Assembly: GCA_024710525.1 (NCBI GenBank)
Contig: JANJUP010000022.1
Coordinates: 192,001-256,000, forward strand
Reading direction: 5' to 3'
Source of the DNA: Candidatus Rifleibacteriota bacterium
GTDB lineage: Bacteria; Muiribacteriota; Ozemobacteria; Ozemobacterales; Ozemobacteraceae
Length of the DNA: 64,000 nt
Positions 13,937 through 41,456 of this stretch are shown one piece after another. The notes below the pieces were generated by a model that was given only the letters and a program-made list of their open reading frames with translations, had not been told where the DNA came from and searched no databases. The position numbers were made by a program, and so were the translations under genes. The number at the start of each line of letters is the position of its first letter. Positions within the stretch are counted from its first letter, which is position 1.

Positions 13937-14152
13937 CGTCTGTCATGCCGACCCTGACGGGCTTTTCGTTGATCAATACTGAGAGACTGAATGTCAGTTT
14001 CGACAGAACGGTTAATTGATACAAAACAATTTTAACCGAAAAAACTCAGATTTCCAAGACTCCCAAAAGGTTTTTTTTGCTCTGAATTCTCCGGTGCGGT
14101 ACAACCGGCTTTGAGAAAACTGACGAATTTCGTGAAAAAAATAGCAAAAGAC

Positions 14153-17121: not shown

Positions 17122-17126
17122 AAACC

Positions 17127-17801
17127 ATGAACAGTATAGCCACACTTCTTGCCTTGTCATGTATTTTTCTGCTCGGTTCGAGCCGGTTGCTGATGTCGAT
17201 CAGAATGGTCGCTTTTCAGGGGCTGCTGCTGGGTATCCTGCCACTGGCCGCCGCCGGTGACGGCCATCTGTCGCTGGCTCTTATTTTTCTGTCGCTCGCC
17301 AGCATTGCGTTGAAAAGCATTCTGCTGCCCTGGCTGCTGAACAAGGCCATGGTCGATTCAGGCACCCGCCGAGAGATCGAGCCATTCATCAGCTTCGGCG
17401 CCTCGATGCTGCTCGGGCTTTTTCTGCTTGCCGTGTCTGGCTGGATCGTCGACAAGCTTCAGGCAACCGAGCCGGTGCCTTCGCCGGTTACCCTGATTGC
17501 AGGGTTTTATCTGGTTTTTTCGGGTCTGCTGCTGCTGATAACAAGACGCAAAGCGCTCACCCAGACCCTTGGCTTTCTTGTTCTCGAAAACGGGGTTTTT
17601 ACTGCCGGTCTCAGCCTTGGCAGCGAGTTCTCGGTGATGGTTGAACTGGGCATTCTGCTTGACGTCTTTGTCGGCATTTTCCTGATGGGTATCATGCTTT
17701 TTCATATTGACCGCGAATTCGACCACCTCGATGCCGACCGTTTCAATGAACTGTCTGACCTCGAAATTGCCGCTTCGCCCGATGAGGAGGTAGCAGAATG
17801 A
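17127..17801 (+). CDS. HyfE/NuoK-like small membrane subunit
   Basis: 224 aa with about 6 TM segments. Its position and size match hydrogenase-4 component E-like subunits. There is an acidic C-terminal tail. Confidence 0.7.
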   Translation: MNSIATLLALSCIFLLGSSRLLMSIRMVAFQGLLLGILPLAAAGDGHLSLALIFLSLASIALKSILLPWLLNKAMVDSGTRREIEPFISFGASMLLGLFLLAVSGWIVDKLQATEPVPSPVTLIAGFYLVFSGLLLLITRRKALTQTLGFLVLENGVFTAGLSLGSEFSVMVELGILLDVFVGIFLMGIMLFHIDREFDHLDADRFNELSDLEIAASPDEEVAE

Positions 17802-19366: not shown

Positions 19367-20856
19367 AAAATACTCTGTTGCTGAAAAATGGCAGTTCTGC
19401 AAAACTCGAAAATGTTCCGGTAATTGAGGCTGAAGGCTTTCGCAAGCACCTGACCGTGCAGATTCAGAAAGGCGGTCGCCTGTCGGCGCTCTTCCTGGTT
19501 CCTGGCGACTCCCAGGCAAGCCTTTTTGCGATTGTTTCGCACGACCACACCAGCGAACTCGAAGTATTTTCCTGCCTCTGCGGCCGTAAATTCAACGCTC
19601 TGACCCCAATTCTGCCACAGGCTCACTGGTTCGAAAGAGAAATCGCCGAAATTCACGGCATTGAAATGGTCGGGCACCCCTGGATGAAGCCGATCCGCTT
19701 TCAGCCAAAAGCCGGGCAGAACGTTGAGATCATTCCCGGTGCCACCAGCTATTTCGAAGTTAAGGGCGAAGAGGTGCACGAGGTCGGTGTCGGACCGGTG
19801 CATGCCGGTATCATCGAACCCGGCCATTTTCGTTTTCAATGCCACGGAGAAAAGGTTTTTCATCTGGAAATCGAACTGGGATACCAGCACCGCGGTATCG
19901 AAAGGGCGATTCCCGTCTCTCAACCTCAGAAAGTTATCAGGCTTATGGAAACGGCAGCCGGCGATACCAGTATCGGTCACGCTACCGCCTATGCCATGAA
20001 TGTCGAAGCGCTCGCCGGGCTGAAGTTGAGCCAGAATGCGGCAATTATCCGCAGCGTCGCTCTCGAACTCGAACGCATGGCCAATCATACCGGCGATCTG
20101 GGTGCGCTCGCCGGCGATGTCGGCTTTCTGCCGACGGCGGCTTACTGCGGTCGTATCAGAGGCGATATTCTCAATACCACCGGCCTGATCTGCGGCAATC
20201 GCTTTGGCCGCGGCCTGATCAGAACTGGCGGCGTCGGTTACGAAATCGACGCCGAACTGAAAAAGGCGATTCTCGATAAACTGGCGCTTGTCGAAGCCGA
20301 CCTGCGTTCGGCTATCAACCTCATCTGGGATACCCCTTCGGTTGTGTCACGATTTGAAGAAACCGGTCTCGTCAGCCGGGAAGACGCGATCGCCGCTGGG
20401 CTGGTCGGCCCCGCTGCCCGTGCCTGCGGTGTCTCGATTGACATCCGCCTTTCGCACGCCTTTGCCGCCTACGGCAGAATTAAGCCTGAACTGGCGCTCG
20501 GCCGTCAGGGCGATGTTAACGGCCGGGCCACGGTGCGCTGGCTCGAAATTCAGGATTCGCTGTGCCTCATTCGAGCCATGCTCGAAGAACTTTCTGCTGA
20601 AAAAGCCGGCTGCAGTATGCCGAAGGCTGAACTGGCACCGGATTCATTGGCCGTCAGTCTTGCCGAAGGCTGGCGTGGCGAAATCTGCCATGTTGCCATT
20701 ACTGACAGCAAAGGTAATCTTAAAAGCTATAAAATCGTTGACCCCTCATTTCATAACTGGTTTGGCCTGGCTCTGGCATTGAGAAACCAGGAAATCTCAG
20801 ACTTTCCGCTCTGCAATAAGAGTTTCAACCTCTCTTACTGCGGCCACGACCTGTGA
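19363..20856 (+). CDS. Fused NuoC-NuoD / HycE-like large subunit that lacks the NiFe-ligating cysteines (Ehr large subunit-like)
   Basis: The conserved GPVHAGIIEPGHFRF...GEKV.HLE..LGY.HRGIE block is present. The position of the N-terminal R-x-C-G-x-C-xxxH motif reads ETAAGDTSIGHATAY, with no Cys. The C-terminal DPCxxCxxH/R position reads VDPSFHNWFG, with no Cys. GTG start overlapping the upstream stop, with GGAGGT RBS. Confidence 0.85.
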   Translation: MKNTLLLKNGSSAKLENVPVIEAEGFRKHLTVQIQKGGRLSALFLVPGDSQASLFAIVSHDHTSELEVFSCLCGRKFNALTPILPQAHWFEREIAEIHGIEMVGHPWMKPIRFQPKAGQNVEIIPGATSYFEVKGEEVHEVGVGPVHAGIIEPGHFRFQCHGEKVFHLEIELGYQHRGIERAIPVSQPQKVIRLMETAAGDTSIGHATAYAMNVEALAGLKLSQNAAIIRSVALELERMANHTGDLGALAGDVGFLPTAAYCGRIRGDILNTTGLICGNRFGRGLIRTGGVGYEIDAELKKAILDKLALVEADLRSAINLIWDTPSVVSRFEETGLVSREDAIAAGLVGPAARACGVSIDIRLSHAFAAYGRIKPELALGRQGDVNGRATVRWLEIQDSLCLIRAMLEELSAEKAGCSMPKAELAPDSLAVSLAEGWRGEICHVAITDSKGNLKSYKIVDPSFHNWFGLALALRNQEISDFPLCNKSFNLSYCGHDL

Positions 20857-20864
20857 GGTGAAAT

Positions 20865-21623
20865 ATGTTTCAAATTCTTAAAGCCAGATTACATCAGGGT
20901 TATCGCACTTTTCCGTTCCCCGAAAAGCAGCCGCCCATGGCCCCCCGCTATGCCGGCCGCCCGAAAATTCTGCCGGGCAGCTGCAAAGGCGACTGTGCCG
21001 CCTGCGTCGGTGTCTGTCCGACCGGCGCTCTGTCACGCGGTGCCGGCAACCGCCCGGTAATCGATCTCGGCCGCTGTATCTTCTGCCGCGCCTGTGAAGA
21101 AGCCTGCGCCGAAAAGCTCATCAGTTTTACCCAGGAATTCTCGATGGCCGCCAATTCAAAAGAGGCGCTCGTCATAGCCGATGAAAAATTCAAACAGGCC
21201 GAAGCAATGGGCAATGAACTGCGCCGCCTGTTCGGCAGATCGCTCAAACTGCGCCAGGTCAGTGCCGGCGGCTGCAACGCCTGCGAAGCCGATACCAACG
21301 TGCTTGGAACCCCGAATTTTGACCTGGCGCGCTTTGGCATTCAGTTTGTCGCTTCGCCAAGACATGCCGACGGCCTGCTGATAACCGGCCCGGTGAGCCA
21401 GAACATGAAGCTCGCCATGCAGAAAACTTACGAAGCGTTGCCTTCGCCGTCAATTGTGATTGCTGTCGGCGCCTGTGCCGTTTCAGGCGGTCTGTTCAAG
21501 GGTAACAGTGAAGTCAATGATGGTGCCGCCGGTATTGTGCCCGTCGACCTTTTTGTGCCTGGTTGCCCGCCGCATCCCTGGACAATTCTCGAAGGTATTT
21601 TACGGTTTATGGGGCGCTTATAA
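20865..21623 (+). CDS. Fused 2x[4Fe-4S] ferredoxin (HycF/NuoI-like) plus NuoB/HycG-like small subunit
   Basis: The N-terminal part has CKGDCAACVGVCP and CIFCRACEEAC ferredoxin motifs. The C-terminal NuoB-like domain keeps the proximal-cluster ligands (GGCNACE, GACAVSGG, PGCPPHP). GAGGTG RBS. Confidence 0.85.
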   Translation: MFQILKARLHQGYRTFPFPEKQPPMAPRYAGRPKILPGSCKGDCAACVGVCPTGALSRGAGNRPVIDLGRCIFCRACEEACAEKLISFTQEFSMAANSKEALVIADEKFKQAEAMGNELRRLFGRSLKLRQVSAGGCNACEADTNVLGTPNFDLARFGIQFVASPRHADGLLITGPVSQNMKLAMQKTYEALPSPSIVIAVGACAVSGGLFKGNSEVNDGAAGIVPVDLFVPGCPPHPWTILEGILRFMGRL

Positions 21624-27752: not shown

Positions 27753-27786
27753 AAAAGGGTCAGGCGATATTGCCTGACCCTTTTTG
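27753..27786. terminator. Bidirectional rho-independent terminator between the convergent fadL-like and kamE genes
   Basis: A 9-bp stem (gggtcaggc / gcctgaccc) with a 6-nt loop, flanked by an A-tract upstream and a T-tract downstream. Confidence 0.6.
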
Positions 27787-27807: not shown

Positions 27808-28596
27808 TTATTTCATTTTGCGTTTGACGAATTCATCGACGAAGAATGAAGCGACGTGCTCGGCATATTTGCCCGGGCCGAAGCCGGCATCGTAACCGAG
27901 TTCTTTGGCCAGATCGTTGGTGATGCGCGGGCCACCGGCAACCAGAACCACTTTGTTGCGCAGATTGGCGGCTTCAAGCAGTTCAACCAGTTCGACCATG
28001 TTGGTGACGTGGACGTCTTTCTGGGTGACGGTCTGCGAGACCAGCAGCACGTCAGCTTTTAGCTCGACCGCTTTTTTGACGAAATCTTCGTTGGTTACCT
28101 GACTGCCGAGATTGTAGGCTTCGATCATCTGGTAGCGCTCGAGCCCGTAGTGGCCGGCGTAACCCTTCATGTTCATGATCGCATCGATGCCGACGGTGTG
28201 AGCGTCGGTGCCGGTGCTGGCGCCAACGACGACGAGCTTGCGTCCGATGTTTTCTTTGATGAATTCATCGACGCCGTGCATGTCCATGATCGTTGAATCG
28301 ATGGTGGCGACCTTGATGCTGGTGATGTCGACCGTGTGAGTCAGGTTGCCATAGACGACGAAGAATGAAAAGTTCTTGTCGAGAGCTTCGTGATGCGAAA
28401 CCTGCACATCTGACAGGCCCATTTTGGCACCGAGCTGGCGGGCCGCTTCGATGGCGCGTTCGTCATCGGCAACCGGCAGGGTGAAGCTGAGCTGCACCTT
28501 GCCGTCGTTCATCGTGTCGCCATAGGGCTTGAGACGGGTCAGATCGAGTTCTTTACTGAAATTCTTCTCTTTGGTTGAATAAAGGCCGCTGCTCAT
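27808..28596 (-). CDS. kamE: Lysine 5,6-aminomutase beta subunit (B12-binding)
   Basis: 262 aa. It carries the DxHxxG cobalamin-binding motif (TDAHTVGID). Its size and its pairing with the alpha subunit fit kamE. The start overlaps the kamD stop (ATGA). Confidence 0.85.
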   Translation of the reverse strand: MSSGLYSTKEKNFSKELDLTRLKPYGDTMNDGKVQLSFTLPVADDERAIEAARQLGAKMGLSDVQVSHHEALDKNFSFFVVYGNLTHTVDITSIKVATIDSTIMDMHGVDEFIKENIGRKLVVVGASTGTDAHTVGIDAIMNMKGYAGHYGLERYQMIEAYNLGSQVTNEDFVKKAVELKADVLLVSQTVTQKDVHVTNMVELVELLEAANLRNKVVLVAGGPRITNDLAKELGYDAGFGPGKYAEHVASFFVDEFVKRKMK

Positions 28597-30152
28597 TTGT
28601 TGCCCCCCTTCAGCATCATGTCAACGAACGGGTTGAAATAGCTGCTCTGCTTTTCGACAACGCCATCGAGCCCCTTGCCACCGGTAAATGGTCGTTTGAC
28701 CCCGGCGAATTTGCCCTGTTCAAGAGTTTTGAACAGACCGTCGCGTCTGATATTTTCAAGCATGTTGCAGGCTTCGTTGAGAACCTGATTGGCGCGGGTG
28801 GTAATAATGCCGTCTTTCTTGAATTCAAGCTCATCGCCGAGATCGGCCATGGTATTGAAAATATAGCGGGCATTTTCTATCGAAAGGGCGCGGTCTGACA
28901 TCAGCGGCGTGTGAATCGCTTCGGTCAGCATGCCGAGCAGATGCAGTTTCTGGTTGGTCAGCACCGTCACCATATTGAACAGCGCATCCTGCACGTGGCC
29001 CCGGAAAATATTGCCGGTCTTGAACTTGGTCGGTGGCATATACTTCAACGGCGCTTTCGGAAAGATTTCTCGTGCCATCTGTGCCTGCGCCAGTTCATAA
29101 ACAAAGCCGTTTTTCAGGTCAGGGTTGATTTCGAACGCATGCCCTAGGCCCATCTGTTCTTCTGGAATGCCGCTGATCAGAGCGAACTGTTCATTGATGA
29201 ACTGCGAGGCCAACACGGTATGCGCCTCTTCGACGGCATCGGCAGTGGTCAGGTAATTGTCTTCGCCGGTATTGATGATTACGCCGGCAAAACCGTTGAT
29301 GATGCGCGAAAAATACTGGTCGACGAGAGTGCGCTGCATGTTGATGTCGCGGAACAGAATGCCATAGAGTGCGTCGTTGAGCATGACATCGAGGCGTTCG
29401 AGAGCGCCCATGGCGGCTATTTCAGGCATGCACAGGCCGGAGCAGTAGTTGCACAGCCTGATGTAGCGACCCTGCTTCTCTGATACCTCGTCAAGGGCGG
29501 CGCGCATCAGCCGGAAGTTTTCCTGGGTGGCAAAGGTGCCGCCAAAGCCTTCGGTAGTGGCGCCAAAAGGCACGAAGTCGAGCAGGCTCTGCCCGGTGGT
29601 TCTGATGACGGCGATGATATCGGCGCCCTGGTTGGCGGCAGCGCGGGCCTGAATGATGTCTTCGTAGATATTGCCGGTGGCAACGATTACGTAGAGATAG
29701 GGGCCTTTTTTGTCGCCGTAGCGGCCAAGGTATTCTTCCCGCTGGCGGCGGTTGCTTCTGATTCTTTCGACAGTCTGGCGGGCGATTTCTTCGATTCTGG
29801 CACGAATTTCAAACATGTCGGCCATTTTGAGCCGGGTGATGTCGAGTTCGCCACTGGCAACCGCTTCAGCGATCTGCTGCGGGGTTTTGCCGGTCTGAAT
29901 CATGGCATTGCCGATATAAGCCGAAAGGCCGAGGCTCAAACCGTTGTTACTGCGAATGTTGTCGACCAGAACGTTTGGCAGAGGTACACCCTGGGCATCG
30001 ACCCCGTCGATACCAAGCAGGCGGGCGACGGTCCGCTCGATTGTCACGCTGGTGTGCTTTTCGATGAACTTCTGGGTGTCGGCCGCGATTTCGCGGGCAT
30101 ACTGTCTGGCTTTGTCGACTATGGCAAAATTGAGATTGAGTTTGCTTTTCAT
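28593..30152 (-). CDS. kamD: Lysine 5,6-aminomutase alpha subunit
   Basis: 519 aa. It is the large PLP/TIM-barrel subunit family, sitting next to the B12-binding beta subunit. It lies in a lysine fermentation cluster with kamA, kdd and kce. Confidence 0.85.
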   Translation of the reverse strand: MKSKLNLNFAIVDKARQYAREIAADTQKFIEKHTSVTIERTVARLLGIDGVDAQGVPLPNVLVDNIRSNNGLSLGLSAYIGNAMIQTGKTPQQIAEAVASGELDITRLKMADMFEIRARIEEIARQTVERIRSNRRQREEYLGRYGDKKGPYLYVIVATGNIYEDIIQARAAANQGADIIAVIRTTGQSLLDFVPFGATTEGFGGTFATQENFRLMRAALDEVSEKQGRYIRLCNYCSGLCMPEIAAMGALERLDVMLNDALYGILFRDINMQRTLVDQYFSRIINGFAGVIINTGEDNYLTTADAVEEAHTVLASQFINEQFALISGIPEEQMGLGHAFEINPDLKNGFVYELAQAQMAREIFPKAPLKYMPPTKFKTGNIFRGHVQDALFNMVTVLTNQKLHLLGMLTEAIHTPLMSDRALSIENARYIFNTMADLGDELEFKKDGIITTRANQVLNEACNMLENIRRDGLFKTLEQGKFAGVKRPFTGGKGLDGVVEKQSSYFNPFVDMMLKGGNK

Positions 30153-30424
30153 CGTCTTCCCTTAACCTTGAAATATTTGCTCAATTATACCGCCGAAACG
30201 TCGTTTCTGCAGTATTTTTTTAGCCTTGCAGGCACCCGGGCACTTCTTACTGCAACTTTTCAGCTTTTTCCAGATGACAAGTTCACCAATATGCCTATAT
30301 ACTCATGGTAGATACAGTAAATAAAGATTCTGGTTTTCGGTCATGCCTGAGAGAGTTTGTTCCCCTGCGTTGTGTTTCACCGCAGATATATGACCACATT
30401 CGGCCTGGTTGGAGAGAAACAGAC

Positions 30425-32146
30425 ATGGCAAAACTGCCCGGCAGCATATATGACCGGCTTTTAATTATATGCATCTCACTGTTTCTGACCATCGTTATCT
30501 GGGGAGCATACATTTTTCGCGTCGAAAAAATGCTGCAGGACGAGAAACAAAGAATGGCAGACGAGGCTAAGACCTCTCTCGATGCTTCTGTGCAGCATAC
30601 CTTGATGTTGTTGAACCAGATCGGCGTTTTTCTGCGCAGTGTAAGAGAATTTTACGGTCATTGCCGTTCGGTTGAACAAACAGAAAGGTTCATCGAGGCC
30701 ATGCAGCTCGACCGGTCGCTTACCCCCAACTTTTTTCTGGTTGACGTCGACGGCAACTTTCTGATTCCACGCAATGGGGCCGGCCAGGGGCCGAATGTCG
30801 CCGACCGCAGTTATTTCAGATATCATCAGCAGAATCCTGGCGACAGCCTTTTTATTTCGGCAGTAGAGATTGGGCGCATTACCGGAAAATTTCACTTTCG
30901 AGTTGCTTTGCGAATCGACAAACCAGACGGGGCCTTCGATGGAGTCGCTCTCGTGACAGTCAGCCCGGAACTTTTTACCCGCTATTTCAAAGAATTGCAG
31001 CTGGGGCCTCAGTTTGTCGCGTCTTTAATCGGAATACACGACAGAAAAATGCGTGCCAGAATTCCGGAACCCGCAAATGACATGTGGGCCACAAGTCTGC
31101 AGAACCCCGAGTGGGAGAAGATAATTTTCGATGCTTCGGCAAGCTTTCAGACCAGAAGCCCGGTTGATCAGATTTATCGAAACTTTGTTTCCAAAAGGGT
31201 TGGTGACTTTCCTCTCGGAATGCTCGTCGGCTTTTCCGACGCGGATGTCATGAACCGGGTTGAAGAGGCAAAAAAATTATTGCAGCTGATTGCAATCATG
31301 CTGACCATTTTCCTTGCTGTCGTTGTAGTCGCGATGCTGGAAAAGGTTAAAGCCAACCAGCTGCTGCTGCAGCGAAACCAGCTGATGCTTGCAGATCTGG
31401 CTGCAGCCGCGAAAATTCAGAGTGCTTTGCTGCCCCGTACCGATTTTCTGAGTCACCGGGTTGATATGCATCTGCGCTTTTTACCCTGTAATCAGGTTGG
31501 CGGTGACATGGTCAACGTAATTCCATTTTCTGAGACCGAAATAGGAGTGTATTGTCTGGATGTGTCTGGTCATGGGATTCCGGCGGCTCTTACCGGAGTG
31601 GCGCTATCGCATATGCTGCGCAGCGACGGAAAAATTGTCAGCCAGATGCGGGATGGCAGCATTGTTCCCAATTCACCGGGCGAAATTATTGCCGGTCTGG
31701 AACGTGAGTTCCCCTTTGAGGAGCTGGGTCAGTATTTAACCATGGTTTTTTTGCTGATGGACCGTGCGAAAAACCAGCTGAAAATAGCTGCTGCCGGTCA
31801 TCCTGCACCATTACTGGTAATGCCGGACGGTCAGGTCGAAGAAATAAAAGTCGGTGGTTTACCGGTTGGCTTTGGTGATGGTGAGGTGCGTGAGGAAATT
31901 GTGATTGAGATTCCGGCCGGTGCGGCTTTGATTATCTATTCAGATGGTATTACCGAGCAGGCGGACTCGAAGGGCAGGCGATTTGGTACCGACAGGCTGA
32001 AAAAATCTCTGGCTGCGCATGCGCGCGATGGAGTTGTGGAAATGGTAGACGCTGTCTGGAACGAGCTTACGGCTTTTCGGGGCAAAGCATTGCGGGATGA
32101 CGACATGAGCCTGCTGGGTGTAAGTTTTCCGATTGAAAAAAAGTAA
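30425..32146 (+). CDS. Membrane sensor PP2C (SpoIIE/RsbU-type) Ser/Thr phosphatase with a periplasmic dCache-like domain
   Basis: The order is TM1, then about 270 aa periplasmic domain with Cache-like signatures (RSYFRYHQQNPGDSLFISAVEIGRITGKFHF), then TM2, a coiled coil and a PPM/SpoIIE domain (CLDVSGHGIPAALTGVAL). I prefer the ATG at 30425 (GGAGAG 8 nt upstream) over the track's ATG at 30305. Confidence 0.75.
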   Translation: MAKLPGSIYDRLLIICISLFLTIVIWGAYIFRVEKMLQDEKQRMADEAKTSLDASVQHTLMLLNQIGVFLRSVREFYGHCRSVEQTERFIEAMQLDRSLTPNFFLVDVDGNFLIPRNGAGQGPNVADRSYFRYHQQNPGDSLFISAVEIGRITGKFHFRVALRIDKPDGAFDGVALVTVSPELFTRYFKELQLGPQFVASLIGIHDRKMRARIPEPANDMWATSLQNPEWEKIIFDASASFQTRSPVDQIYRNFVSKRVGDFPLGMLVGFSDADVMNRVEEAKKLLQLIAIMLTIFLAVVVVAMLEKVKANQLLLQRNQLMLADLAAAAKIQSALLPRTDFLSHRVDMHLRFLPCNQVGGDMVNVIPFSETEIGVYCLDVSGHGIPAALTGVALSHMLRSDGKIVSQMRDGSIVPNSPGEIIAGLEREFPFEELGQYLTMVFLLMDRAKNQLKIAAAGHPAPLLVMPDGQVEEIKVGGLPVGFGDGEVREEIVIEIPAGAALIIYSDGITEQADSKGRRFGTDRLKKSLAAHARDGVVEMVDAVWNELTAFRGKALRDDDMSLLGVSFPIEKK

Positions 32147-32181
32147 AAACCGAGAGTTGATCGGCGCTTTCGAGAAAACCG

Positions 32182-33642
32182 TTACGACTGGTAATGGCGG
32201 CGTAATATAGCGAGAAATTCGGAGTCGAGACCAAGGATCGTGGCAATGTGCATCGCATCTTTTGGTACCTGATAGTCATCGTTGATTTTCAGCAGCCGGT
32301 AATCCATTTTTTCACACAGTTTTTGTAGAAGTGTCTCGCGGTCGGTATGTTCTTCAATAGTGTTTTTGTCTTTAAGGCCGATTACCTGATAATAAGCTGC
32401 CCCCTCGATTCTTATGCCATCGAAGTGTGTGGCAATAATTCCGTATGACCCGCTTTGCTGCAGAAACTCGCCGAGGGCCTGCACAAACCTGCTGCCCTCA
32501 GAGGGGTTCGTCGATCTGGCGAATTCGTCACAGACGGCAAGCCCGATTCCCTGACGGGTCAGGGCGGTCAGTTCGCTGAGTCTGATTATTTCAGCGCCGA
32601 AACTGCTCAGACCCGATGCCTGGTTCTGGCCATCGCCGGCGATCAGGCAGATAAAGTCAAACAGCGGCATGCAGAAGCGGCGCGCAAAAACGAAAAAGCC
32701 AAGGGTCGCCAGCTCGGCATTCATGGCCAGGGTCAGCAGAGCTACAGATTTGCCGCCCATGTTGGCTCCGGTCAGTAGTGTCGTGCCCGGACTCAGCTCG
32801 ATCGATACCGGCGTGAACTGTTTGCCACGACTGGCAAGAATTGCCTCTACTTCAGGGTTTATCATCTCTTCTGCCCGCAACGGCACTTTTTCGGCGGCGG
32901 CGAACACTTCCGGGCAGGTGCAGTTAAATTGGCAGGCCAGGCGGGTTTTGGCGAGCAGCAGTTCAAAACGTCCGGCAGCCAGACCGTTATGCCGCATTCT
33001 TGTGACCCATTCGAGCAGCTGTCTGCCGAGATTTTCTCTGACCAGGTGCTCTTCAGCCTTTTCTGACTGAACCAGGCGCGCCCGCTGATCGCGCAGTTCA
33101 TCGCGCTTCTGCTGGTCAGTACACTGCAATATGCAATTTTCGAGCTGAATTTTTTCGGCTCTGATCTCTTTGAGCTTCTGCGAATAGGCCTCGTGTACGT
33201 GAAACGAAGTGACTACTGTGCGGTCAGGATTGAGAATTTTGATAACCGGTTCGATGTCGCTGAACGAAACTGATGGCAGCTGCAGACCAGATCGCTCATA
33301 CCAGTTTTTCAGGCTGGTGAGCAGCATCGCAAAACCTTTGATTTCGAGCAGCTCCGTTTCGTCGGGTACCTGTCCGGCTTCGAGATTGTCGAGCGAGCCG
33401 TTGATGTAACGCAGGCACTTAAAAATACTGCCGGCCTGATCAAAAAAACTTTTATCGTTCCGGGCAGCAGTAACCATGATTTCAAGTTCAGCAAGGCTCT
33501 GGCGCAACTGTTCCAGCTGATCAGATTTTGCCGGTCGCAGGTTTTTAAGAGCTTCGCGGCCGTAGAGCGATTCTATCTGCAGCTCAGAAAGCAGCCAGGC
33601 AACCCCGGGGGTGCTGGCGCGGTATTTTTTCTGTCTATGCAT
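32182..33642 (-). CDS. MutS domain-V-like ABC ATPase (MutS2-related; no Smr domain seen)
   Basis: A MutS-type Walker A motif (TGANMGGKS) is present. I chose the ATG at 33642 (AGAAAGG upstream, 2 nt after the upstream stop); the track's start at 33747 would overlap the upstream gene by 113 nt. Confidence 0.65.
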   Translation of the reverse strand: MHRQKKYRASTPGVAWLLSELQIESLYGREALKNLRPAKSDQLEQLRQSLAELEIMVTAARNDKSFFDQAGSIFKCLRYINGSLDNLEAGQVPDETELLEIKGFAMLLTSLKNWYERSGLQLPSVSFSDIEPVIKILNPDRTVVTSFHVHEAYSQKLKEIRAEKIQLENCILQCTDQQKRDELRDQRARLVQSEKAEEHLVRENLGRQLLEWVTRMRHNGLAAGRFELLLAKTRLACQFNCTCPEVFAAAEKVPLRAEEMINPEVEAILASRGKQFTPVSIELSPGTTLLTGANMGGKSVALLTLAMNAELATLGFFVFARRFCMPLFDFICLIAGDGQNQASGLSSFGAEIIRLSELTALTRQGIGLAVCDEFARSTNPSEGSRFVQALGEFLQQSGSYGIIATHFDGIRIEGAAYYQVIGLKDKNTIEEHTDRETLLQKLCEKMDYRLLKINDDYQVPKDAMHIATILGLDSEFLAILRRHYQS

Positions 33643-34687
33643 GCTGGGGCGCCTTTCTGCCGAATGTTTGATTCTGTGCAGCACACACATCGAAAATCGG
33701 CAGGTTGATTTTTTCAGACAGGTTCCGGCAGAGCTCTGCACCGTCAAGCTTCAGGCCTGATGGTGCGGTCGGATTGACCGTCACCGCTATCAGATTGACC
33801 TGGCGTCTGACCGCCAGTCTGGCACCACGGTCGATCAGGTCACATTTCTGGCGGCTGTTGATGAGATATCTGGTGCCGTCTTCGGCGACAAGCTGCAGCC
33901 ATTCGAGCCGTCGGCACTTATCGAGCAGTCGCTGCAGCATTGGCCTGGTTACGGCGCCGTTGAACAAAGCCGTGGTTGGTTGCCCGCTGCGGCCGGCGAT
34001 CTGGTCGGCACATTCGTCGCTGAGCGCGCTGACCCTGCCGCAGATGTTACCGTCCTGGTCGAGAAGAATACAATTGTTGGCATCTTCACTTTTGCACGTA
34101 AAAGCTGCATCTGACTTGAATTCTGGCAGAGTGAGAAGTCCGGTGTAATGGCGGGTCTGCTCGACAATATCATCGGAGTTTGGCGAAAATGCTGCCCCGG
34201 TTGCCAGTATGCAGGCCTCTGAACTGGCGATTGCCGCAGTAGACTTGCGGGCGGCGGCGCCGTCGACGAGAACCTGTGTGGCGCCAAGTTCGTGCAGCAT
34301 ACTGATCAATGCCGACATCTGCGCCGTGGTAGAGGGTCCGGCGATCTGGGCAAAACCATCGCTGCGGGCTCTGGTGATAACGACCTCGCCCATCGGTGTG
34401 TTAAAGCCGGTAAAACGCAGAAGCTCACGGGTAAAATCACATTGCCCGAGAAGACTGCTGGCTGTGGCAACCATTGTGCCACAGCCAACATATATCGACG
34501 GTTTGTCAGTTCCGGTCACCTGATCGGTATCTTCACCATCGTAGCCGATCGAGGTGATCGCCTGAACCACGGGCGGTCTGCTGCTGAGAAGATGGTTGAG
34601 CACCGTTGTTTTGCCGGCATTTTTTTCCATGCCGATGATGGCAACGCAGCTGTAACCTTCGATCAGTTCAGCAAGTGACCTGCCCAT
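33635..34687 (-). CDS. P-loop NTPase of unknown function, embedded in the lysine fermentation cluster
   Basis: Walker A motif IIGMEKNAGKTT. 350 aa. Its start lies 3 nt after the kamA stop. I recognise no family. Confidence 0.5.
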   Translation of the reverse strand: MGRSLAELIEGYSCVAIIGMEKNAGKTTVLNHLLSSRPPVVQAITSIGYDGEDTDQVTGTDKPSIYVGCGTMVATASSLLGQCDFTRELLRFTGFNTPMGEVVITRARSDGFAQIAGPSTTAQMSALISMLHELGATQVLVDGAAARKSTAAIASSEACILATGAAFSPNSDDIVEQTRHYTGLLTLPEFKSDAAFTCKSEDANNCILLDQDGNICGRVSALSDECADQIAGRSGQPTTALFNGAVTRPMLQRLLDKCRRLEWLQLVAEDGTRYLINSRQKCDLIDRGARLAVRRQVNLIAVTVNPTAPSGLKLDGAELCRNLSEKINLPIFDVCAAQNQTFGRKAPQHA

Positions 34688-34690
34688 TGT

Positions 34691-35962
34691 TCATGATCTT
34701 TTTTTGCGTTTTTTGCGCTTCAAACCTTCGGGTTCGAGCGAAATTTTGCCCTGATGCAGGCCGGCAACGCCTTCGATTTCGACGTCGCCCTTCTGGCAGG
34801 CATCACATTTGCAGCTCGGTTTGTAACCCTCGGGTTCGTTATAGCAGGTGATGACACCTTCATAATTGCGCAGAATCGTCTTCTCGTAGCCGCTCGAAAT
34901 CAGGTAATTCGGCATTACCGGAATCTTGCCGCCACCACCCGGTGCGTCAACCACGTAAGTCGGCACGCAGAAACCGCTGGTATGGCCGCGCAGACCTTCG
35001 ATTATCTCGATGCCCTTGGCTACCGGGGTTCTGAAGTGTGACAGCCCGTAAGAAAGGTCGCACTGATAGATGTAATAAGGTCTTACTCTGACTTTGACCA
35101 GCTCATGCACCAGCTTGCGCATTACATGAACGCAGTCGTTGACACCGGCCAGCAGAACCGACTGGTTCCCGATCGGAATTCCGGCATAACTCAGCAGTTC
35201 GCAGGCTTTGGCGGCGTCGGTGGTGATTTCTTTCGGATGGTTGTAGTGGGTGTTGACCCAGATCGGGTGATACTTCTTGAGCATATCGCAGAGCTCGGGC
35301 GTAATGCGCTGAGGCAGAACGACCGGGGTGCGGGTGCCGATTCTGATGATTTCGACGTGCGGAATGGCGCGCAGTTTCTGCAGAATGCCTTCGAGTTTAT
35401 TGTCTGCCAGCAGCAGCGGGTCGCCGCCCGAGACGACGACGTCGCGAATCTGCGGATTGGCTGCAATATACTCAATGGCCTTGTCGATGTGGCTGCTGGG
35501 CATTGCCGTGTCTTTCTGACCGGCAAAGCGTCTGCGGGTGCAGTGGCGGCAATACATCGAGCACTGGTCGGTGACCAGAAGCAGGGCGCGGTCAGGGTAG
35601 CGGTGGGTCAGTCCGTGAACTGGCGAATCGCCGTCTTCGTGCAGCGGGTCTTCGAGATCGGCCGGCGAACGATAAAGTTCGAGGTCGGTCGGAATAGCCT
35701 GCTTGCGCACCGGATCATTGGGGTTGTCCGGATCGATGAGGGTCAGATAATACGGCGTAATCGCCATGCGCAGGGTTGTCAGACAGTCTTTGACGCCGTC
35801 GACTTCCATTTCGGTCAGCTTAACGTATTTTCTGAGATCGTCGATGGTTTCGATACGGTTGCGGACATGCCATTTCCAGTCGTTCCAGTCGGTGTCGCTG
35901 ACGTTCGGAAACAGCTTTGCCCGTCGCTGAATGTGCTCATCACGAGTGTAACTGCTGTTCAA
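34691..35962 (-). CDS. kamA: L-lysine 2,3-aminomutase (radical SAM)
   Basis: Very close to characterised KamA sequences (SDTDWNDWKWHVRNRIET; CSMYCRHCTRRRFAGQ radical-SAM Cys triad; HVEIIRIGTRTPVVLPQRITPEL; PYYIYQCDLS; VVDAPGGGGK). TTG start at 35962 with GGAAAGGA upstream. Confidence 0.95.
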   Translation of the reverse strand: MNSSYTRDEHIQRRAKLFPNVSDTDWNDWKWHVRNRIETIDDLRKYVKLTEMEVDGVKDCLTTLRMAITPYYLTLIDPDNPNDPVRKQAIPTDLELYRSPADLEDPLHEDGDSPVHGLTHRYPDRALLLVTDQCSMYCRHCTRRRFAGQKDTAMPSSHIDKAIEYIAANPQIRDVVVSGGDPLLLADNKLEGILQKLRAIPHVEIIRIGTRTPVVLPQRITPELCDMLKKYHPIWVNTHYNHPKEITTDAAKACELLSYAGIPIGNQSVLLAGVNDCVHVMRKLVHELVKVRVRPYYIYQCDLSYGLSHFRTPVAKGIEIIEGLRGHTSGFCVPTYVVDAPGGGGKIPVMPNYLISSGYEKTILRNYEGVITCYNEPEGYKPSCKCDACQKGDVEIEGVAGLHQGKISLEPEGLKRKKRKKRS

Positions 35963-36003
35963 TTACTGATTCCTTTCCCTGTTGGGGCACTTTGTGAGGT
36001 GTC

Positions 36004-37047
36004 TCAGCAGTACATTTCTTCGAAAAGTTTGCGGAGTGCCGGGCTTTCGCGCAGAACCTGCAGCGAAATGGCGGCGTGGTCTTTGCAGTAGCCATTACCG
36101 ATGATCATGTTAACGTCTTTGCCAACGCCTTCAGCGCCAAGAGCAGCCTGAGTGAAGCTGGTGGCCATGCTGAAGAAATAAACGGTGCCGCCTTCTCTGC
36201 AGGAGAGAATGCTTGCCATTTCGGTGTTGGGGATGTTAACGCAGTTGATTACCAGGTCAGCGAGCTTGCTATCGGTAAGAGCGCTGATTTTGTTGTAGAT
36301 GCTGATTGCATCAGTGGCGTCAGCGGCGAAATATTCGTCGGCGAGACCGAGCTGGCGGGCGCGTTCGGTGCTCTTTTCTGAGCCGCCGATGCAGATTACC
36401 TTGCCGGTGATGCCGGCGCGTTTTTTCGCTTCATACAGGCAGAGAAGACCTGATTTTCCGCCGCCGCCGATTACAACGACGATGTCGCCGGGGCGAACGA
36501 GCTTGGCAGCCTGAGCAGGGGCACCGGCCACGTCGAGAACCGAGAGGGCGAGGGTTTCGGGCATATCATTCGGCAGAACGGCATAGATGCCGCTTTCAAA
36601 CAGAATTGCCTGGCCCTTGATGTCGACCTGGTCGATGTCGGGTCTTACTTCGAGAATTTTTTCGATTTTGAGCGGGGTGAGAGAGAGAGAGACGAGAGTG
36701 GCGATCTTGTCGCCGACTTTCAGCGGGGTTTTCCCTTTGAGGGCCGGGCCGATTTCTTTAACGGTGCCGATCAGCATCCCGCCTGAACCGGTAACCGGGT
36801 TTTTGTGCTTGCCCTGCTTTTCAACGAGGCCCATCATGATTTTCTTGATCTCTTCGATATCATGGTTGGCCTGTTTTTCGATCTGGGTGAAACTGGCTGA
36901 GTCGACATTGAGAGTCCTGACGTCGATCAGAATCTCGTTGTCATAAATCTCCATGGTGTTGTCGATTCTGAGTGCCGGCTGCGGCAGAACGCCTTTGGGC
37001 TCGATAACACGGTGGGTTCCATAGGGGCATCCTTTTTTCACAGTCAT
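36004..37047 (-). CDS. kdd: L-erythro-3,5-diaminohexanoate dehydrogenase
   Basis: 347 aa. It is an NAD(P)-binding Rossmann protein (VVVIGGGGKSGL). Its N-terminal region resembles Kdd. It sits between kamA and the CoA transferase genes. AGGAGA RBS. Confidence 0.85.
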   Translation of the reverse strand: MTVKKGCPYGTHRVIEPKGVLPQPALRIDNTMEIYDNEILIDVRTLNVDSASFTQIEKQANHDIEEIKKIMMGLVEKQGKHKNPVTGSGGMLIGTVKEIGPALKGKTPLKVGDKIATLVSLSLTPLKIEKILEVRPDIDQVDIKGQAILFESGIYAVLPNDMPETLALSVLDVAGAPAQAAKLVRPGDIVVVIGGGGKSGLLCLYEAKKRAGITGKVICIGGSEKSTERARQLGLADEYFAADATDAISIYNKISALTDSKLADLVINCVNIPNTEMASILSCREGGTVYFFSMATSFTQAALGAEGVGKDVNMIIGNGYCKDHAAISLQVLRESPALRKLFEEMYC

Positions 37048-37164
37048 TTCTCCTTGCGTATGTTGATTTTATGAAGACTTTGCTATGTACAAAACAGAAC
37101 CTTGCTCAGCTATGATAGCAGCAAATATTCAACTTACCAACCGGGAATTTTTCAACCCCCGGGC

Positions 37165-37830
37165 TTAAACTTCCATCGTTTTCAGATTATCTGAAACTAT
37201 GAAATCGGCTTCAGTGTTTGCGCGTATTTCGTCGATGGTCGTGTCTTTATTGATCTCGATCAGAGCGAGGCCACCCGGGGTGACCCTGAAAACGCCAAGT
37301 TCGGTTACGATCATGTTGACAACGTGGCGTGCCGTCAGCGGCAGGCGGCATTTTTTGAGAATCTTCGGCTTGCCGCGCTCGGTGTGCAGTGTCGAAACGA
37401 TGACGTTTTTAGCGCCGACGACGAGGTCCATCGCGCCGCCCATTCCAGGAACCTTCTTGCCCGGGATGATCCAGCTGGCGAGGCTGCCTTCCTGGTCGAC
37501 TTCGAGGGCGCCAAGAACCGTGTATTCAACGTGCTTGCCGCGAATCAGGGCGAACGACATGGCGCTGTCGAAATAGCAGCCGTGTGGCAGAATCGTGACC
37601 ATGGCGCCGCCGGCATTGGTGAGTTCCGGGTTTTCTTTGCCCGGTTCGGGGGCGGGGCCCATGCCGATCATGCCGTTTTCAGACTGGAGAATGACATTGA
37701 CGCCCTGTGGGATATGATTGGCAACCATGGTCGGCAGGCCGATACCCAGGTTAACCAGCTGATTGTTCTTGAATTCGCGGGCGATGCGCTTCGCGATAAT
37801 GTTTTTGGCCAGTTCGATATCTTCGATCAT
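37165..37830 (-). CDS. 3-oxoacid CoA-transferase, B subunit
   Basis: 221 aa. It has the typical AtoA/ScoB N-terminus ([23 protein letters not shown]) and glutamate active-site region (ENGMIGMGP). Confidence 0.85.
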
Positions 37831-37848
37831 CTTGTTGCTCCTTGCCCG

Positions 37849-38508
37849 TCAGCGTTTTTCGGATTTGAAAATATGGGTGACCAGCGGGCCCGGGGTCATT
37901 ACCAGTTCGGGCATCAGTTCGCCTGGTTCAACCAGTTTTTCGGCTTCAACCACGACAACGCCGGCAGCCATAGCCATCAGCGGGTTGAAGTTGCGGGTAG
38001 TTGCGTTGTAAACGACGTTGCCGGCCTTGTCGACACTGCTGCCGTTGATAATGGCCAGGTCAGCGCGCAACGGCAGTTCGAGCAGATACTCGTGGCCGTC
38101 GACGGTGATTTTCTGCTTGCCCTCTTCAACGACGGTGCCGACACCAGTTGGGGTCAGCACGCCGCCGAGCCCGGCACCGGCGCATCTGATGCGTTCAGCC
38201 AGAGTGCCCTGCGGAACCAGTTCGACGTTGAGGGTGCCTTCGACCATCTGTTTGCCGGTCTCAGGGTTGGTGCCGATATGTGAAGTGATGACCTTTGCCG
38301 CCTGCTTGGCGGCAACCAGGCGGCCAACGCCGCGGTCGACGAACGAGGTGTCGTTGCAGATAAGAGTAAGGTTTTTGGCACCGCTGGCGAGAATGAGGTC
38401 GATCAGCGTTTCGGGGGTGCCGCAACCAAGAAAACCGCCAACCATGATGACCATGCCGTCTTTGATCAGGCTGGTAAAGTCATTTTTGTTGATAATCTTG
38501 TCAAACAT
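37849..38508 (-). CDS. 3-oxoacid CoA-transferase, A subunit
   Basis: 219 aa, AtoD/ScoA-like (DGMVIMVGGFLGCGTPETL). It lies directly upstream of the B subunit. Confidence 0.85.
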   Translation of the reverse strand: MFDKIINKNDFTSLIKDGMVIMVGGFLGCGTPETLIDLILASGAKNLTLICNDTSFVDRGVGRLVAAKQAAKVITSHIGTNPETGKQMVEGTLNVELVPQGTLAERIRCAGAGLGGVLTPTGVGTVVEEGKQKITVDGHEYLLELPLRADLAIINGSSVDKAGNVVYNATTRNFNPLMAMAAGVVVVEAEKLVEPGELMPELVMTPGPLVTHIFKSEKR

Positions 38509-38535
38509 CAGTTGAGCCTTTCCTTATTATTTTAC

Positions 38536-39360
38536 TCAGCGGGGCTTGAGACCGAGAATGGCGCGGGCTTCGTCGGGGGTGGCGATTTCACGGCCGAGTT
38601 CTTTGGCGATGCGCACCGCTTTGGCGACCAGTTCGCCGTTAGAAGTGGCGAGAACACCTTTCGACAGGTAGGTGTTGTCTTCAAAACCAACCCTGACGTG
38701 GCCGCCAAGCAGAATGGCGGTAGTGGCCATCTGGAACTGCGATCTGCCGATACCGGAAACGGTAAAGGTACTGCCGGCCGGAATACTGCCCTGCATGTAA
38801 ACCACGTCGCGAACACTGGCGCTGATACCGCCGGTAACGCCCATAACGAAGTTAAAATGCATCGGCGACGCGATAAAGCCTTTTTTCTGTAGTCTGATCG
38901 CCGTGTCGATCATGCCCTTGTCGAATACTTCGACTTCGGGTTTGACGCCGAGTTCGAGCATTTTTTTGCCGAAGGCGATGATCGTGTTTTCGGAATTGAC
39001 GAAGATATCGTCGTTGCCGAAATTCACGGTGCCGCAGTCGAGAGTCGCCATTTCAGGCTTCAGATCGACCGGCTGCAGGCGTTCTTCGTTCGACATGCCG
39101 ACGGCGCCGCCGGTCGAAGGCTGAATGATGGCCTTCGGGCAGCGTTCCTGAATGGCATTGATCGCGGCACGAAAGCGCTCACGACTCTGGGTCGGAGTGC
39201 CGTTGTCTTCGCGCACATGCAGATGAATGATCGATGCGCCAGCGTTAACTGCCGATTCGGCTTCACGCACCAGTTCGGCGATTGTATAAGGTACCGCCGG
39301 GTTATTTTCTTTGGTTACTTCAGCGCCGCAGATGGCGGCAGTAATGATGAGTTTTTCCAT
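38536..39360 (-). CDS. kce: 3-keto-5-aminohexanoate cleavage enzyme (BKACE / DUF849 family)
   Basis: 274 aa. It belongs to the BKACE TIM-barrel family (IITAAICGAEVTKENNPAVPYT...ASIIHLHVRED), and its lysine-fermentation context fits kce. Confidence 0.85.
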   Translation of the reverse strand: MEKLIITAAICGAEVTKENNPAVPYTIAELVREAESAVNAGASIIHLHVREDNGTPTQSRERFRAAINAIQERCPKAIIQPSTGGAVGMSNEERLQPVDLKPEMATLDCGTVNFGNDDIFVNSENTIIAFGKKMLELGVKPEVEVFDKGMIDTAIRLQKKGFIASPMHFNFVMGVTGGISASVRDVVYMQGSIPAGSTFTVSGIGRSQFQMATTAILLGGHVRVGFEDNTYLSKGVLATSNGELVAKAVRIAKELGREIATPDEARAILGLKPR

Positions 39361-39371
39361 GTTTCCCTGCC

Positions 39372-40625
39372 TCAGTATTTCTTTTCGTCGACGAACGAAA
39401 GTGATTCGTCAATTGCCTTGAGCGTGTATTTGAGATCTTCATCAGTGTGCCGGTAGCAGATGTAACCGTGGTGATACGGCTGCAGGAACACCTTGCGTCT
39501 GATCAGCTGGGTATAGAAGTCGACGCGCTTTGCCTTGTAGGTTTTCGACTCGTCTTTGTTGAAAGTGACGAAAGGCATCTGTGGCACCGGAGAAGCGCCG
39601 GTCGAAACTTTGTGCTTTGCCAGAACCTTGCCGAGCTCAGCGTTGAACCATTCACCCTTGGCTTTGATCACATCGAGAACCTTGTCGCGTTCGAGCATTT
39701 CGATGGTTTTGAGAGCGGCGGCGAATTCAAGGCTGTTCGGGAAGAAAGTCGATGAAATGAAAACTTCCTTTTCGATTTTTTTCATGAACTGCGCTTTGCC
39801 GACACAGGCGCCGATCGGGTAACCATTCGCCATTGCTTTGCCGAAGGTTGACAGGTCGGGGGTGACGCCAAACAGGGTCTGGGCGCCACCGATATGAACT
39901 CTGAAGCCGGAGCGGATTTCGTCAAAAATAAGAACCGCGCCGTATTTGTCGGCCAGAGCTCTTACGCCTTCGAGAAAGCCGGGTTTCGGATATTCGACCT
40001 GCTCGGCGAGGGGGTGCCCGATCGGGGTAACGATGATGGCAGCAGTCTGGTCGCCATGCTGCTTCATCAGATCTTCGAGCTGTTCGAGATGGTTATAGTG
40101 AAATTCATAAACATCTTCATAGAGTTTGGCAGGAACGCCACCTTTTACTTCGACGCACCAGTCATGCCAGCCATGGTACCCGCAGCGCATGATCTTGTTC
40201 CGGCCAGTGTAGCCACGGGCAACGCGGGTTGCCAGAGTTGTGGCATCTGAGCCGGTTTTGACGAAAACGGTCATTTCGGCACATTTGATCAAGTTTTTCA
40301 ACTTAACTGCCAGCTGATTCTGAATTGGCTGGGTGAGAGAAAAACAGAAGCCTTTGTTGCGCATCTGGTCGATTGCGGCGTTATCGATTTCTTCTTCGCG
40401 GTGGCCGATGATGATCGGGCCGTAGGCACAAAGGTAATCGAGATATTCGTTGCCGTCGATATCGGTTATTCTGCCGCCTTTACCGTGGTCGAAATATATC
40501 GGGTATTCGCCCTCGACAAAGTTGTATGGGCGTCTGATACCGAGAACACCACCCGGGGTGCAGGTCTTGCCGTGTTCGAATTCGGCCATGCTTTTCTTTA
40601 AATTGAGCTTCGGTGCGTCGTACAT
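39372..40625 (-). CDS. Class III (glutamate-1-semialdehyde aminomutase-like) PLP aminotransferase. Candidate 3-aminobutyryl-CoA aminotransferase (Kat-like).
   Basis: Class-III aminotransferase fold, with the PLP-lysine region (FDEIRSGFR...). It sits where kal (the ammonia lyase) is found in canonical clusters. I prefer the ATG at 40625 with GGAGG upstream. Confidence 0.7.
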   Translation of the reverse strand: MYDAPKLNLKKSMAEFEHGKTCTPGGVLGIRRPYNFVEGEYPIYFDHGKGGRITDIDGNEYLDYLCAYGPIIIGHREEEIDNAAIDQMRNKGFCFSLTQPIQNQLAVKLKNLIKCAEMTVFVKTGSDATTLATRVARGYTGRNKIMRCGYHGWHDWCVEVKGGVPAKLYEDVYEFHYNHLEQLEDLMKQHGDQTAAIIVTPIGHPLAEQVEYPKPGFLEGVRALADKYGAVLIFDEIRSGFRVHIGGAQTLFGVTPDLSTFGKAMANGYPIGACVGKAQFMKKIEKEVFISSTFFPNSLEFAAALKTIEMLERDKVLDVIKAKGEWFNAELGKVLAKHKVSTGASPVPQMPFVTFNKDESKTYKAKRVDFYTQLIRRKVFLQPYHHGYICYRHTDEDLKYTLKAIDESLSFVDEKKY

Positions 40626-40749
40626 AATTCCTTCCCTCCTGATATATGTTCTGATGAGGTAAAACAAGCTGCGAATCAAGTATTGAACCACTTGCAGGGC
40701 AAATCAGCCGCAGCCTTGTTAATGCTATCACAAACTCTGGTTTCTTTCT

Positions 40750-40790
40750 GCAAAAAAAAATCCCCCGTTGCCGGGGGATTTTCGCTGGTT
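40750..40790 (-). terminator. Rho-independent terminator of the acidic repeat protein gene
   Basis: An 8-bp GC stem (atcccccg / ttgc / cgggggat). On the minus strand it is followed by a 9-U tract (the plus-strand A9 at 40752-40760). Confidence 0.6.
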
Positions 40791-40796
40791 TTAAAG

Positions 40797-41456
40797 TCAG
40801 TCTTCAGAAGAACTGTCGTCAGATGAGCTGTCTGTAGCCGACGAATCTGCGTCAGAGTCATCGCTGCCGCTGTCTGAATCGCCCGAGTCATCAGAACTAC
40901 CGGAATCTGAGTCCCCGGAGTCGCCCGAATCGTCAGAGTCATCCGGTTTATCAGAGTCACCCGAATCGTCTGGGTTGTCAGAGTCGCCCGAATCATCCGG
41001 CTTGTCCGAATCATCGGTATCATCCGAATCTCCAGAATCTCCAGAATCACCGGAGTCGCCTGAGTCGCCCGAATCACCGGAATCACCCGAATCACCCGAA
41101 TCACCCGAATAGCCTGAGCCTGAACTTCCGGAAGAAGATCCGGAGGCGCTGTCTGGAACGCTTTCCCAGGTGTCGGCCTTGATTTCTTTGCCTACGAGGG
41201 TACCTTCAATTTTGATATCTTTGTTTTCATACTGCTCGGCAATGGCCTTGCCGTTTTCATCCATAACCAGTGTGTAGGTTACCGGATTACCGGCGCCATC
41301 ACGATTGCTGGTCTGAAGGACAGCGCCGCTGATCTGCCTGCTGGCATCTCTGGTAACGGTAATCATGCCGGAAAAGAATGCAGCAGAAGCAGAGGCCAGG
41401 GACATGGCAAAGAACCCTGCCGCCAGGGCGGCAACGGTAATTTTTTTGGATCTCAT
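40797..41456 (-). CDS. Secreted protein with a long acidic Ser/Gly/Asp (SGD)n low-complexity tail
   Basis: A signal peptide is followed by a folded domain of about 100 aa. The tail is about 110 aa of GDSGDSGDS...DDSGDSDKPDDS repeats with strongly negative charge. Confidence 0.7.
   Translation of the reverse strand: MRSKKITVAALAAGFFAMSLASASAAFFSGMITVTRDASRQISGAVLQTSNRDGAGNPVTYTLVMDENGKAIAEQYENKDIKIEGTLVGKEIKADTWESVPDSASGSSSGSSGSGYSGDSGDSGDSGDSGDSGDSGDSGDSGDSDDTDDSDKPDDSGDSDNPDDSGDSDKPDDSDDSGDSGDSDSGSSDDSGDSDSGSDDSDADSSATDSSSDDSSSED
40985..41110 (-). repeat. Coding tandem repeats (9/18-bp units, gaatcaccc-like) encoding (SGD)n
   Basis: Seen directly, for example ccggaatcacccgaatcacccgaatcacccgaat. 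It is a length-variable microsatellite-like stretch. Confidence 0.6.

Follow-up and report, generated by a model that had tools for sequence, protein, structure and literature searches.

Fermentation of lysine by the 3,5-diaminohexanoate pathway has been described from gene clusters such as those of Fusobacterium nucleatum (FN1862-FN1869) and Clostridium sticklandii, which hold genes for KamA, KamDE, a MutS-like and a hypothetical reactivase protein, Kdd, Kce and an AtoDA-type CoA transferase. In these classical clusters, the ammonia lyase Kal deaminates 3-aminobutyryl-CoA, giving crotonyl-CoA, which is reduced to butyryl-CoA. A variant using an aminotransferase, Kat, was published in 2011 (Perret et al. 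2011, PLoS One 6:e22918, PMC3149608). Kat of Cloacimonas acidaminovorans (CLOAM0809) converts 3-aminobutyryl-CoA and 2-oxoglutarate into acetoacetyl-CoA and glutamate, and so does a Bacteroidetes homologue whose gene occupies the kal position in a lysine cluster (Perret et al. 2011, PMC3149608). On the corresponding digester contig, the lysine genes form a cluster that lacks kal, and DIG1_60031, a gene for a class-III aminotransferase resembling HemL, lies beside kce; this enzyme was shown to transaminate 3-aminobutyryl-CoA with 2-oxoglutarate (PMC3149608). Here, we analyzed a 64-kb stretch of DNA (referred to as the window, meaning its full length) from an uncultivated Candidatus Rifleibacteriota bacterium (Ozemobacteraceae) and propose that it very probably carries a lysine-fermentation cluster of the Kat variant.

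The window has the genes of the classical clusters in common, with kat in place of kal, so that nitrogen would leave as glutamate and the direct product would be acetoacetyl-CoA. With the Bacteroidetes contig it shares the clustering, the missing kal and the aminotransferase gene beside kce, while it differs in its Rifleibacteriota/Ozemobacteraceae host, in the placement of both CoA-transferase genes between kce and kdd, and in a phosphatase gene lying antisense between kamC and kamD. Related Bacteroidales metagenome-assembled genomes (MAGs; loci L043, L053 and L069) show the order ctfA-kat-kce-kdd-kamA-kamB-kamC-kamD-kamE-ctfB. Cloacimonas has its kat next to a thiolase gene and apart from kce, kdd and kam, whereas kat of the window heads the lysine operon and has no thiolase gene near it. 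The original prediction for this stretch had linked the transaminase route to a Cloacimonas metagenome; the digester is indeed the same, but the hemL-like gene at the kal locus came from the Bacteroidetes contig. The pathway, the enzyme and the gene arrangement are thus already published and the conceptual gain is small; what this stretch adds is its host lineage and some local features, above all the sensor phosphatase gene inserted in the cluster.

Genes were called from a listing of open reading frames (ORFs) together with NCBIfam and Pfam scans, and NCBIfam scores were judged against the curated equivalog cut-offs. A minus-strand array runs from 40625 to 27808 in the order kat, kce, two CoA-transferase subunit genes, kdd, kamA, kamB, kamC, kamD and kamE. 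KamA-E, Kdd, Kce and both CoA-transferase subunits exceed their cut-offs, and E-values of 1e-80 to 1e-280 exclude a chance result. KamA, KamD, KamE, Kdd and Kce form the full equivalog set for the upper 3,5-diaminohexanoate pathway, to which the KamB/KamC reactivase is added. All genes named in the original prediction (KamA, KamD/KamE, Kdd, Kce, an AtoD/AtoA-type CoA transferase and an aminotransferase) were recovered on the minus strand at the coordinates it had given, and its span, 27808-40625, is delimited exactly by the stop codon of kamE and the ATG of the aminotransferase gene. That description did not mention kamB and kamC, the reactivase genes, which also belong to the cluster.

Lysine 2,3-aminomutase, KamA (34691-35962, minus strand, as are all pathway genes below), is a radical S-adenosylmethionine enzyme whose identification as unambiguous was borne out by a TIGR03820 score of 617.1 against a cut-off of 525.4, with PF04055 and PF12544 matched as well. 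Its ORF counts 423 aa from a TTG codon, and the real start may lie a few codons downstream. The reactivase of lysine 5,6-aminomutase is encoded by kamB (33635-34687; NF052386, 313.6 versus 210) and kamC, a MutS-like ATPase gene (32182-33642; NF052383, 446.5 versus 300; PF00488); the sequence shows kamC starting with the ATG at 33642, which overlaps the stop codon of kamB (ATGCATAG). The aminomutase subunits follow as kamD (28593-30152; NF052384, 929.6 versus 600; PF09043, E = 1.4e-272) and kamE (27808-28596; NF052385, 399.6 versus 280; PF16554 and PF02310). L-erythro-3,5-diaminohexanoate dehydrogenase, Kdd, has 347 aa (36004-37047; NF052381, 275.2 versus 200; PF00107), and kce is located at 38536-39360 (NF052387, 446.5 versus 382; PF05853 BKACE, E = 9.6e-108). 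Kce matches the fused Kal-Kce model NF052389 only at positions 170-438, the Kce half, and therefore lacks a Kal domain. Subunit A of the CoA transferase (AtoD/CtfA type, 219 aa, 37849-38508) scored 325.2 versus 315 with NF007394 and matched PF01144, and subunit B (AtoA/CtfB type, 221 aa, 37165-37830) scored 302.8 versus 243.55 with TIGR02428. The cofactor motifs are intact: CxxxCxxC in KamA (CSMYCRHC at residue 134), DxHxxG in KamE (DAHTVG at residue 131), HxH in Kce (H46-x-H48, with GFED at 225), the Walker A motif in KamC (GANMGGKS) and PS00600 in the aminotransferase. Additionally, subunit B of the CoA transferase carries a SENG motif at residue 51, consistent with the catalytic glutamate.

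The aminotransferase gene, kat (39372-40625, 417 aa; PF00202, E = 1.8e-48), is the first gene of the upstream transcription unit and would encode 3-aminobutyryl-CoA aminotransferase (EC 2.6.1.111). Its start was set at the ATG at 40625, where homologues in three other loci (L001, L007 and L009) begin as well, all of them 417 aa long and opening with MYDAPKLNL; a longer GTG-initiated ORF reaching to 40691 is unsupported by these homologues. The PS00600 motif for pyridoxal phosphate (PLP) attachment was found by regular expression at residues 232-268, with Lys263 as the Schiff-base lysine. Aligned with the characterized Kat B0VH76, the protein shows 66% identity and 79% positives over 409 aa with zero gaps, in agreement with the proposed Kat assignment. 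B0VH76 was found by searching with a Cloacimonas orthologue, and an exact look-up returned 3-aminobutyryl-CoA aminotransferase of Cloacimonas acidaminovorans strain Evry. Since the two assayed Kat enzymes, from Cloacimonas and Bacteroidetes, are about 65% identical to one another (Perret et al. 2011, PMC3149608), the window enzyme is as near to the reference as the assayed pair is to each other. It is similar in length to the Cloacimonas protein CLOAM0809 (B0VH76; 417 versus 414 aa), with which it shares the PLP motif, and its identity to orthologues from Cloacimonas and Bacteroidales, including those of the three Bacteroidales loci mentioned above, is 69-71%. Judged from its sequence, the protein is an orthologue of the characterized Kat.

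We also considered that the gene encodes true HemL (glutamate-1-semialdehyde 2,1-aminomutase) serving tetrapyrrole and B12 synthesis; the adenosylcobalamin requirement of KamDE could then explain its link to the cluster. The best family matches are indeed HemL models, the best solved structures in the PDB are HemLs (E ~1e-63), and several public annotations call close relatives HemL. All of the model scores, however, fall far below their cut-offs (TIGR00713, 262.5 versus 527.3; NF000818, 277.6 versus 398; NF009055, 233.6 versus 637), and identity to E. coli HemL is 29-30%, as opposed to 66% to Kat. A 13-residue loop of HemL is missing from the window enzyme and likewise from a Cloacimonas Kat orthologue 81% identical to B0VH76. 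In a neighbor-joining tree, the Kat relatives form one compact clade, set apart from HemL by a long branch. HemL identity is already refuted by these comparisons, and we assign it a probability close to nil.

In public records, many close relatives go by the name glutamate-1-semialdehyde aminotransferase/aminomutase or aspartate aminotransferase family protein, as does the characterized Cloacimonas Kat in its NCBI record, and few are called 3-aminobutanoyl-CoA transaminase; a Kat model seems to be missing from NCBIfam. Such HemL and aspartate aminotransferase names distort predictions of heme and B12 biosynthesis and of amino-acid fermentation in MAGs.

A protein-database search and a scan of GTDB species genomes delineated a tight family at 66-99% identity to the window Kat. 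MAGs of Candidatus Riflebacteria, Rifleibacteriota and Ozemobacteraceae supply the nearest members (99% for L009 and L027; 86% for Rifleibacterium amylolyticum), with Bacteroidales, Carboxylicivirga, Cloacimonadota, Chloroflexota, Zixiibacteriota and Halanaerobiales next at 66-72%. An identical Kat is encoded in the MAG GCA_035356885.1 (contig DAORGP010000068.1), with CALEDQ010000030.1 and the 5.2-Mb Ozemobacteraceae chromosome OZ223236.1 as close relatives. Whereas kat seemed nearly confined to one digester metagenome in 2011, relatives are now found in 439 GTDB species genomes, usually within a lysine operon. From these genomes, the 80 best kat loci were surveyed by tblastn with the window proteins. 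Lysine-fermentation genes occur near kat in 67 of the 80, kce lies directly downstream of kat (within 400 nt; 11 nt in the window) in 48, and kce, kdd, kamA, kamD and kamE are all found together in 30. The order kat-kce-ctfA-ctfB-kdd-kamA-kamB-kamC-kamD-kamE is common to MAGs of Rifleibacteriota, Chloroflexota (Leptolinea), Zixiibacteriota and others, and Bacteroidales MAGs have the same gene set with the two ctf genes at the cluster flanks. The remaining 13 loci, without lysine genes, are mostly Cloacimonadota or truncated contigs. In the Cloacimonas locus L037, the kat orthologue follows an acetyl-CoA C-acetyltransferase (thiolase) gene; because this is the published CLOAM0810/CLOAM0809 arrangement, we consider proteins of this type true orthologues of the characterized Kat. 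These results add Rifleibacteriota/Ozemobacteraceae, uncultivated bacteria common in digesters, aquifers and the rumen, to the hosts of Kat-type lysine fermentation, and in the literature searched for Riflebacteria and lysine fermentation we found no paper linking the phylum with the pathway.

Two side observations were made in this survey. Rifleibacteriota Kat proteins fall into two lineages, one ~78-99% identical to the window protein (with L017) and one at ~69-70% (L050, L062, L071 and L075, from Ozemobacteraceae/Riflebacteria MAGs), and both sit in full lysine clusters, which suggests that the operon was acquired twice or that it diverged as a whole long ago. Further, Carboxylicivirga/Saccharicrinis loci such as L033 (11380-13160) hold a very divergent CoA-transferase pair between kat and kce (E-values of 1e-9 to 1e-13 against the AtoDA models), together with a Kce ~46% identical to that of the window.

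To search for kal, a 128-aa ORF of the Halanaerobiales locus L061 (7688-8074) was used as a positive control and proved to be bona fide Kal (NF052388, 189.9 versus 160). With this verified protein as the tblastn query, no match was obtained in the 64-kb window (best E-value 2.8). Neither NF052388 nor the Kal part of NF052389 matched any ORF of the window or any stop-to-stop segment of at least 45 aa overlapping its intergenic gaps. Both tblastn and the hidden Markov model scan thus agree with the earlier statement that the cluster has no kal, and kal is absent from the window. An ORF upstream of kat (40676-41104, 142 aa) was inspected as a kal candidate and discarded: it matches no family and is a low-complexity shadow frame of the acidic secreted-protein gene (40797-41456).

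We propose the following route, with reaction steps assigned from characterized families to the genes identified here. KamA would convert L-lysine to beta-lysine, and KamDE, maintained in an active state by the KamBC reactivase, would convert beta-lysine to 3,5-diaminohexanoate. Oxidative deamination by Kdd would yield 3-keto-5-aminohexanoate, NAD(P)H and NH3, and Kce would combine the keto acid with acetyl-CoA to give acetoacetate and 3-aminobutyryl-CoA. Kat, in place of the ammonia lyase, would then transfer the beta-amino group of 3-aminobutyryl-CoA to 2-oxoglutarate, producing acetoacetyl-CoA and glutamate, while the AtoDA-type CoA transferase would turn acetoacetate into a second acetoacetyl-CoA. 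Kat activity is defined as transamination of 3-aminobutyryl-CoA, with the thioester required, to acetoacetyl-CoA using 2-oxoglutarate or pyruvate, and B0VH76 has a kcat/Km of 4e5 M-1 s-1 for 3-aminobutyryl-CoA. The activity of the window Kat on 3-aminobutyryl-CoA is predicted from orthology and genomic context, its presumed substrates and amino acceptor being carried over from Perret et al. 2011.

Several points weigh against this reading. First, the neighbor-joining tree joins the two assayed lineages, Cloacimonadota and Bacteroidales, and places the window enzyme in a sister clade, so that it is not bracketed by characterized enzymes; its assignment as Kat is made by orthology. According to Perret et al. 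2011 (PMC3149608), the delta proteobacterium NaphS2 has a 60%-identical homologue but no lysine genes, so that belonging to the family is not enough to define the substrate. Accordingly, the aminotransferase could act on another beta-aminoacyl-CoA or on a free amino acid of the beta or omega type, and kat would then lie in the cluster incidentally or for a side reaction; the characterized Kat also takes beta-homoleucyl and beta-phenylalanyl thioesters (Perret et al. 2011, PMC3149608). We find this very improbable, given that kat heads the operon immediately upstream of kce, that this adjacency is kept across several phyla, and that the cluster without kat has no consumer of 3-aminobutyryl-CoA.

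Second, the search for kal covers 64 kb of a genome of ~5 Mb (size taken from a related Ozemobacteraceae chromosome), and kal may lie elsewhere in it. The two genes do coexist in two Halanaerobiales MAG loci, L061 (JARRCS010000009.1; cluster span 5313-11251) and L064 (JBKGXW010000026.1). Both have the order kamD-kamE-kal-kce-kdd-kat; they share Kam, Kdd and Kce genes with the window, and a Kat 67% identical to its own, but differ in that Kal is encoded directly upstream of kce and kat follows kdd. Since these clusters hold both genes, the presence of kat is no proof that kal is absent, and the lyase and transaminase routes are not mutually exclusive. The organism could thus use the classical Kal route, or both routes, with Kal leading by crotonyl-CoA to butyrate and Kat, as a parallel branch and not a replacement, by acetoacetyl-CoA to acetate. 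We consider this unlikely, because, within up to 10 kb on either side of kat, kal was found in only 2 of the 80 loci, both Halanaerobiales; the 24 loci closest to the window (Kat identity of 76-99%, mostly labeled Rifleibacteriota) all lack it in this range. In the digester, kal was ~20-fold rarer than kat, and neither of the two kat genomes contained it (Perret et al. 2011, PMC3149608).

Third, acetoacetyl-CoA would be led to acetate by thiolase, Pta and Ack and/or to butyrate by Hbd, Crt and Bcd-Etf, and glutamate dehydrogenase would regenerate 2-oxoglutarate, but genes for these enzymes (thiolase, pta/ack, hbd, crt, bcd/etf and gdh) were not detected among the ORFs of the window. Because these downstream genes are not in the window, the claim of the original prediction that lysine is fermented to acetate and butyrate is more than the evidence supports. 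In Cloacimonas, the butyrate branch of the Kat variant was itself termed "enigmatic" (Perret et al. 2011, PMC3149608).

All pathway genes share one strand, as had been claimed, but they are not contiguous. A plus-strand gene at 30305-32146, located between kamC and kamD, encodes a 613-aa membrane sensor phosphatase (PF07228, SpoIIE/PP2C; E = 4.5e-35), which is not a pathway enzyme. The protein has hydrophobic, putatively transmembrane segments near residues 50-72 and 323-345, a periplasmic Cache-like region (a weak dCache_1_like match of 20.4, under the 27-bit cut-off) and a cytoplasmic SpoIIE/PP2C domain. Because of this insertion, the pathway genes fall into two transcription units, one from kat to kamC and the other comprising kamD-kamE. 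The phosphatase gene is found in L009 (84% identity) and is missing from L027, despite 99% Kat identity, and from L001 and L003; we therefore regard the insertion as recent and lineage-specific. From its domains, the phosphatase may be a regulator. A more speculative idea, to which we give little chance, is that the Ozemobacteraceae cluster represents a route without kal that works by transamination alone and depends on the 2-oxoglutarate/glutamate pool, and that it has acquired, in the antisense phosphatase, a lineage-specific regulator that would sense external amino acids and control the pathway by partner-switching or a PP2C cascade. If true, this would be a kind of regulation not described for lysine fermentation.

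Hairpins were found at both borders of the cluster by a consensus scan. Just past the kamE stop codon, a terminator-like hairpin on the minus strand (27753-27784) has a 13-bp stem followed by a T-rich tail. At the other end, a GC-rich hairpin between A/T runs (40757-40782), resembling a bidirectional terminator, separates kat from the upstream gene for an acidic secreted protein, and therefore kat probably starts its own transcript. Of the terminator-like sites in the window (28, compared to 19.7 ± 4.4 in shuffled sequence), these two hairpins alone were used, as weak evidence. The promoter scan was uninformative (12 sites versus 9.8 ± 3.4 in shuffled sequence), and an Rfam gathering scan of the whole window gave no match, so that neither a lysine riboswitch nor any other known RNA element lies near the cluster.

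The acidic protein encoded upstream of kat (40797-41456, minus strand) has 219 aa, a signal peptide and a long Ser/Asp/Gly-repeat tail (GDSGDS...) and matches no family; homologues with 44-62% identity are encoded at the same position in L003, L004, L005 and L010. Farther away, a giant minus-strand ORF of 2287 aa (4447-11310) has no NCBIfam match and only sub-threshold Ig-like and MG2 matches in Pfam, and the small ORFs flanking it are likewise without family matches. A six-gene plus-strand set at 14201-21623 encodes a Hyf/Ech-like membrane complex with HyfB-, NuoH-, HyfE- and HyfF-like subunits, a NuoD/HycE-like large subunit and a fused Fe-S/NuoB-like subunit. No CxxC motif for NiFe ligands occurs in the homologue of the large subunit (19363-20856), and the complex is probably Ehr-type, that is hydrogenase-related and not a NiFe hydrogenase. 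With this motif lacking, we set aside the complex as an H2 outlet for an acetate-only pathway. Finally, a PhaR-like regulator gene (TIGR01848, sub-threshold) stands beside a gene for a 480-aa alpha/beta-hydrolase or lipase-like protein at 11993-14024 on the minus strand, and the two may form a polyhydroxyalkanoate-related pair.

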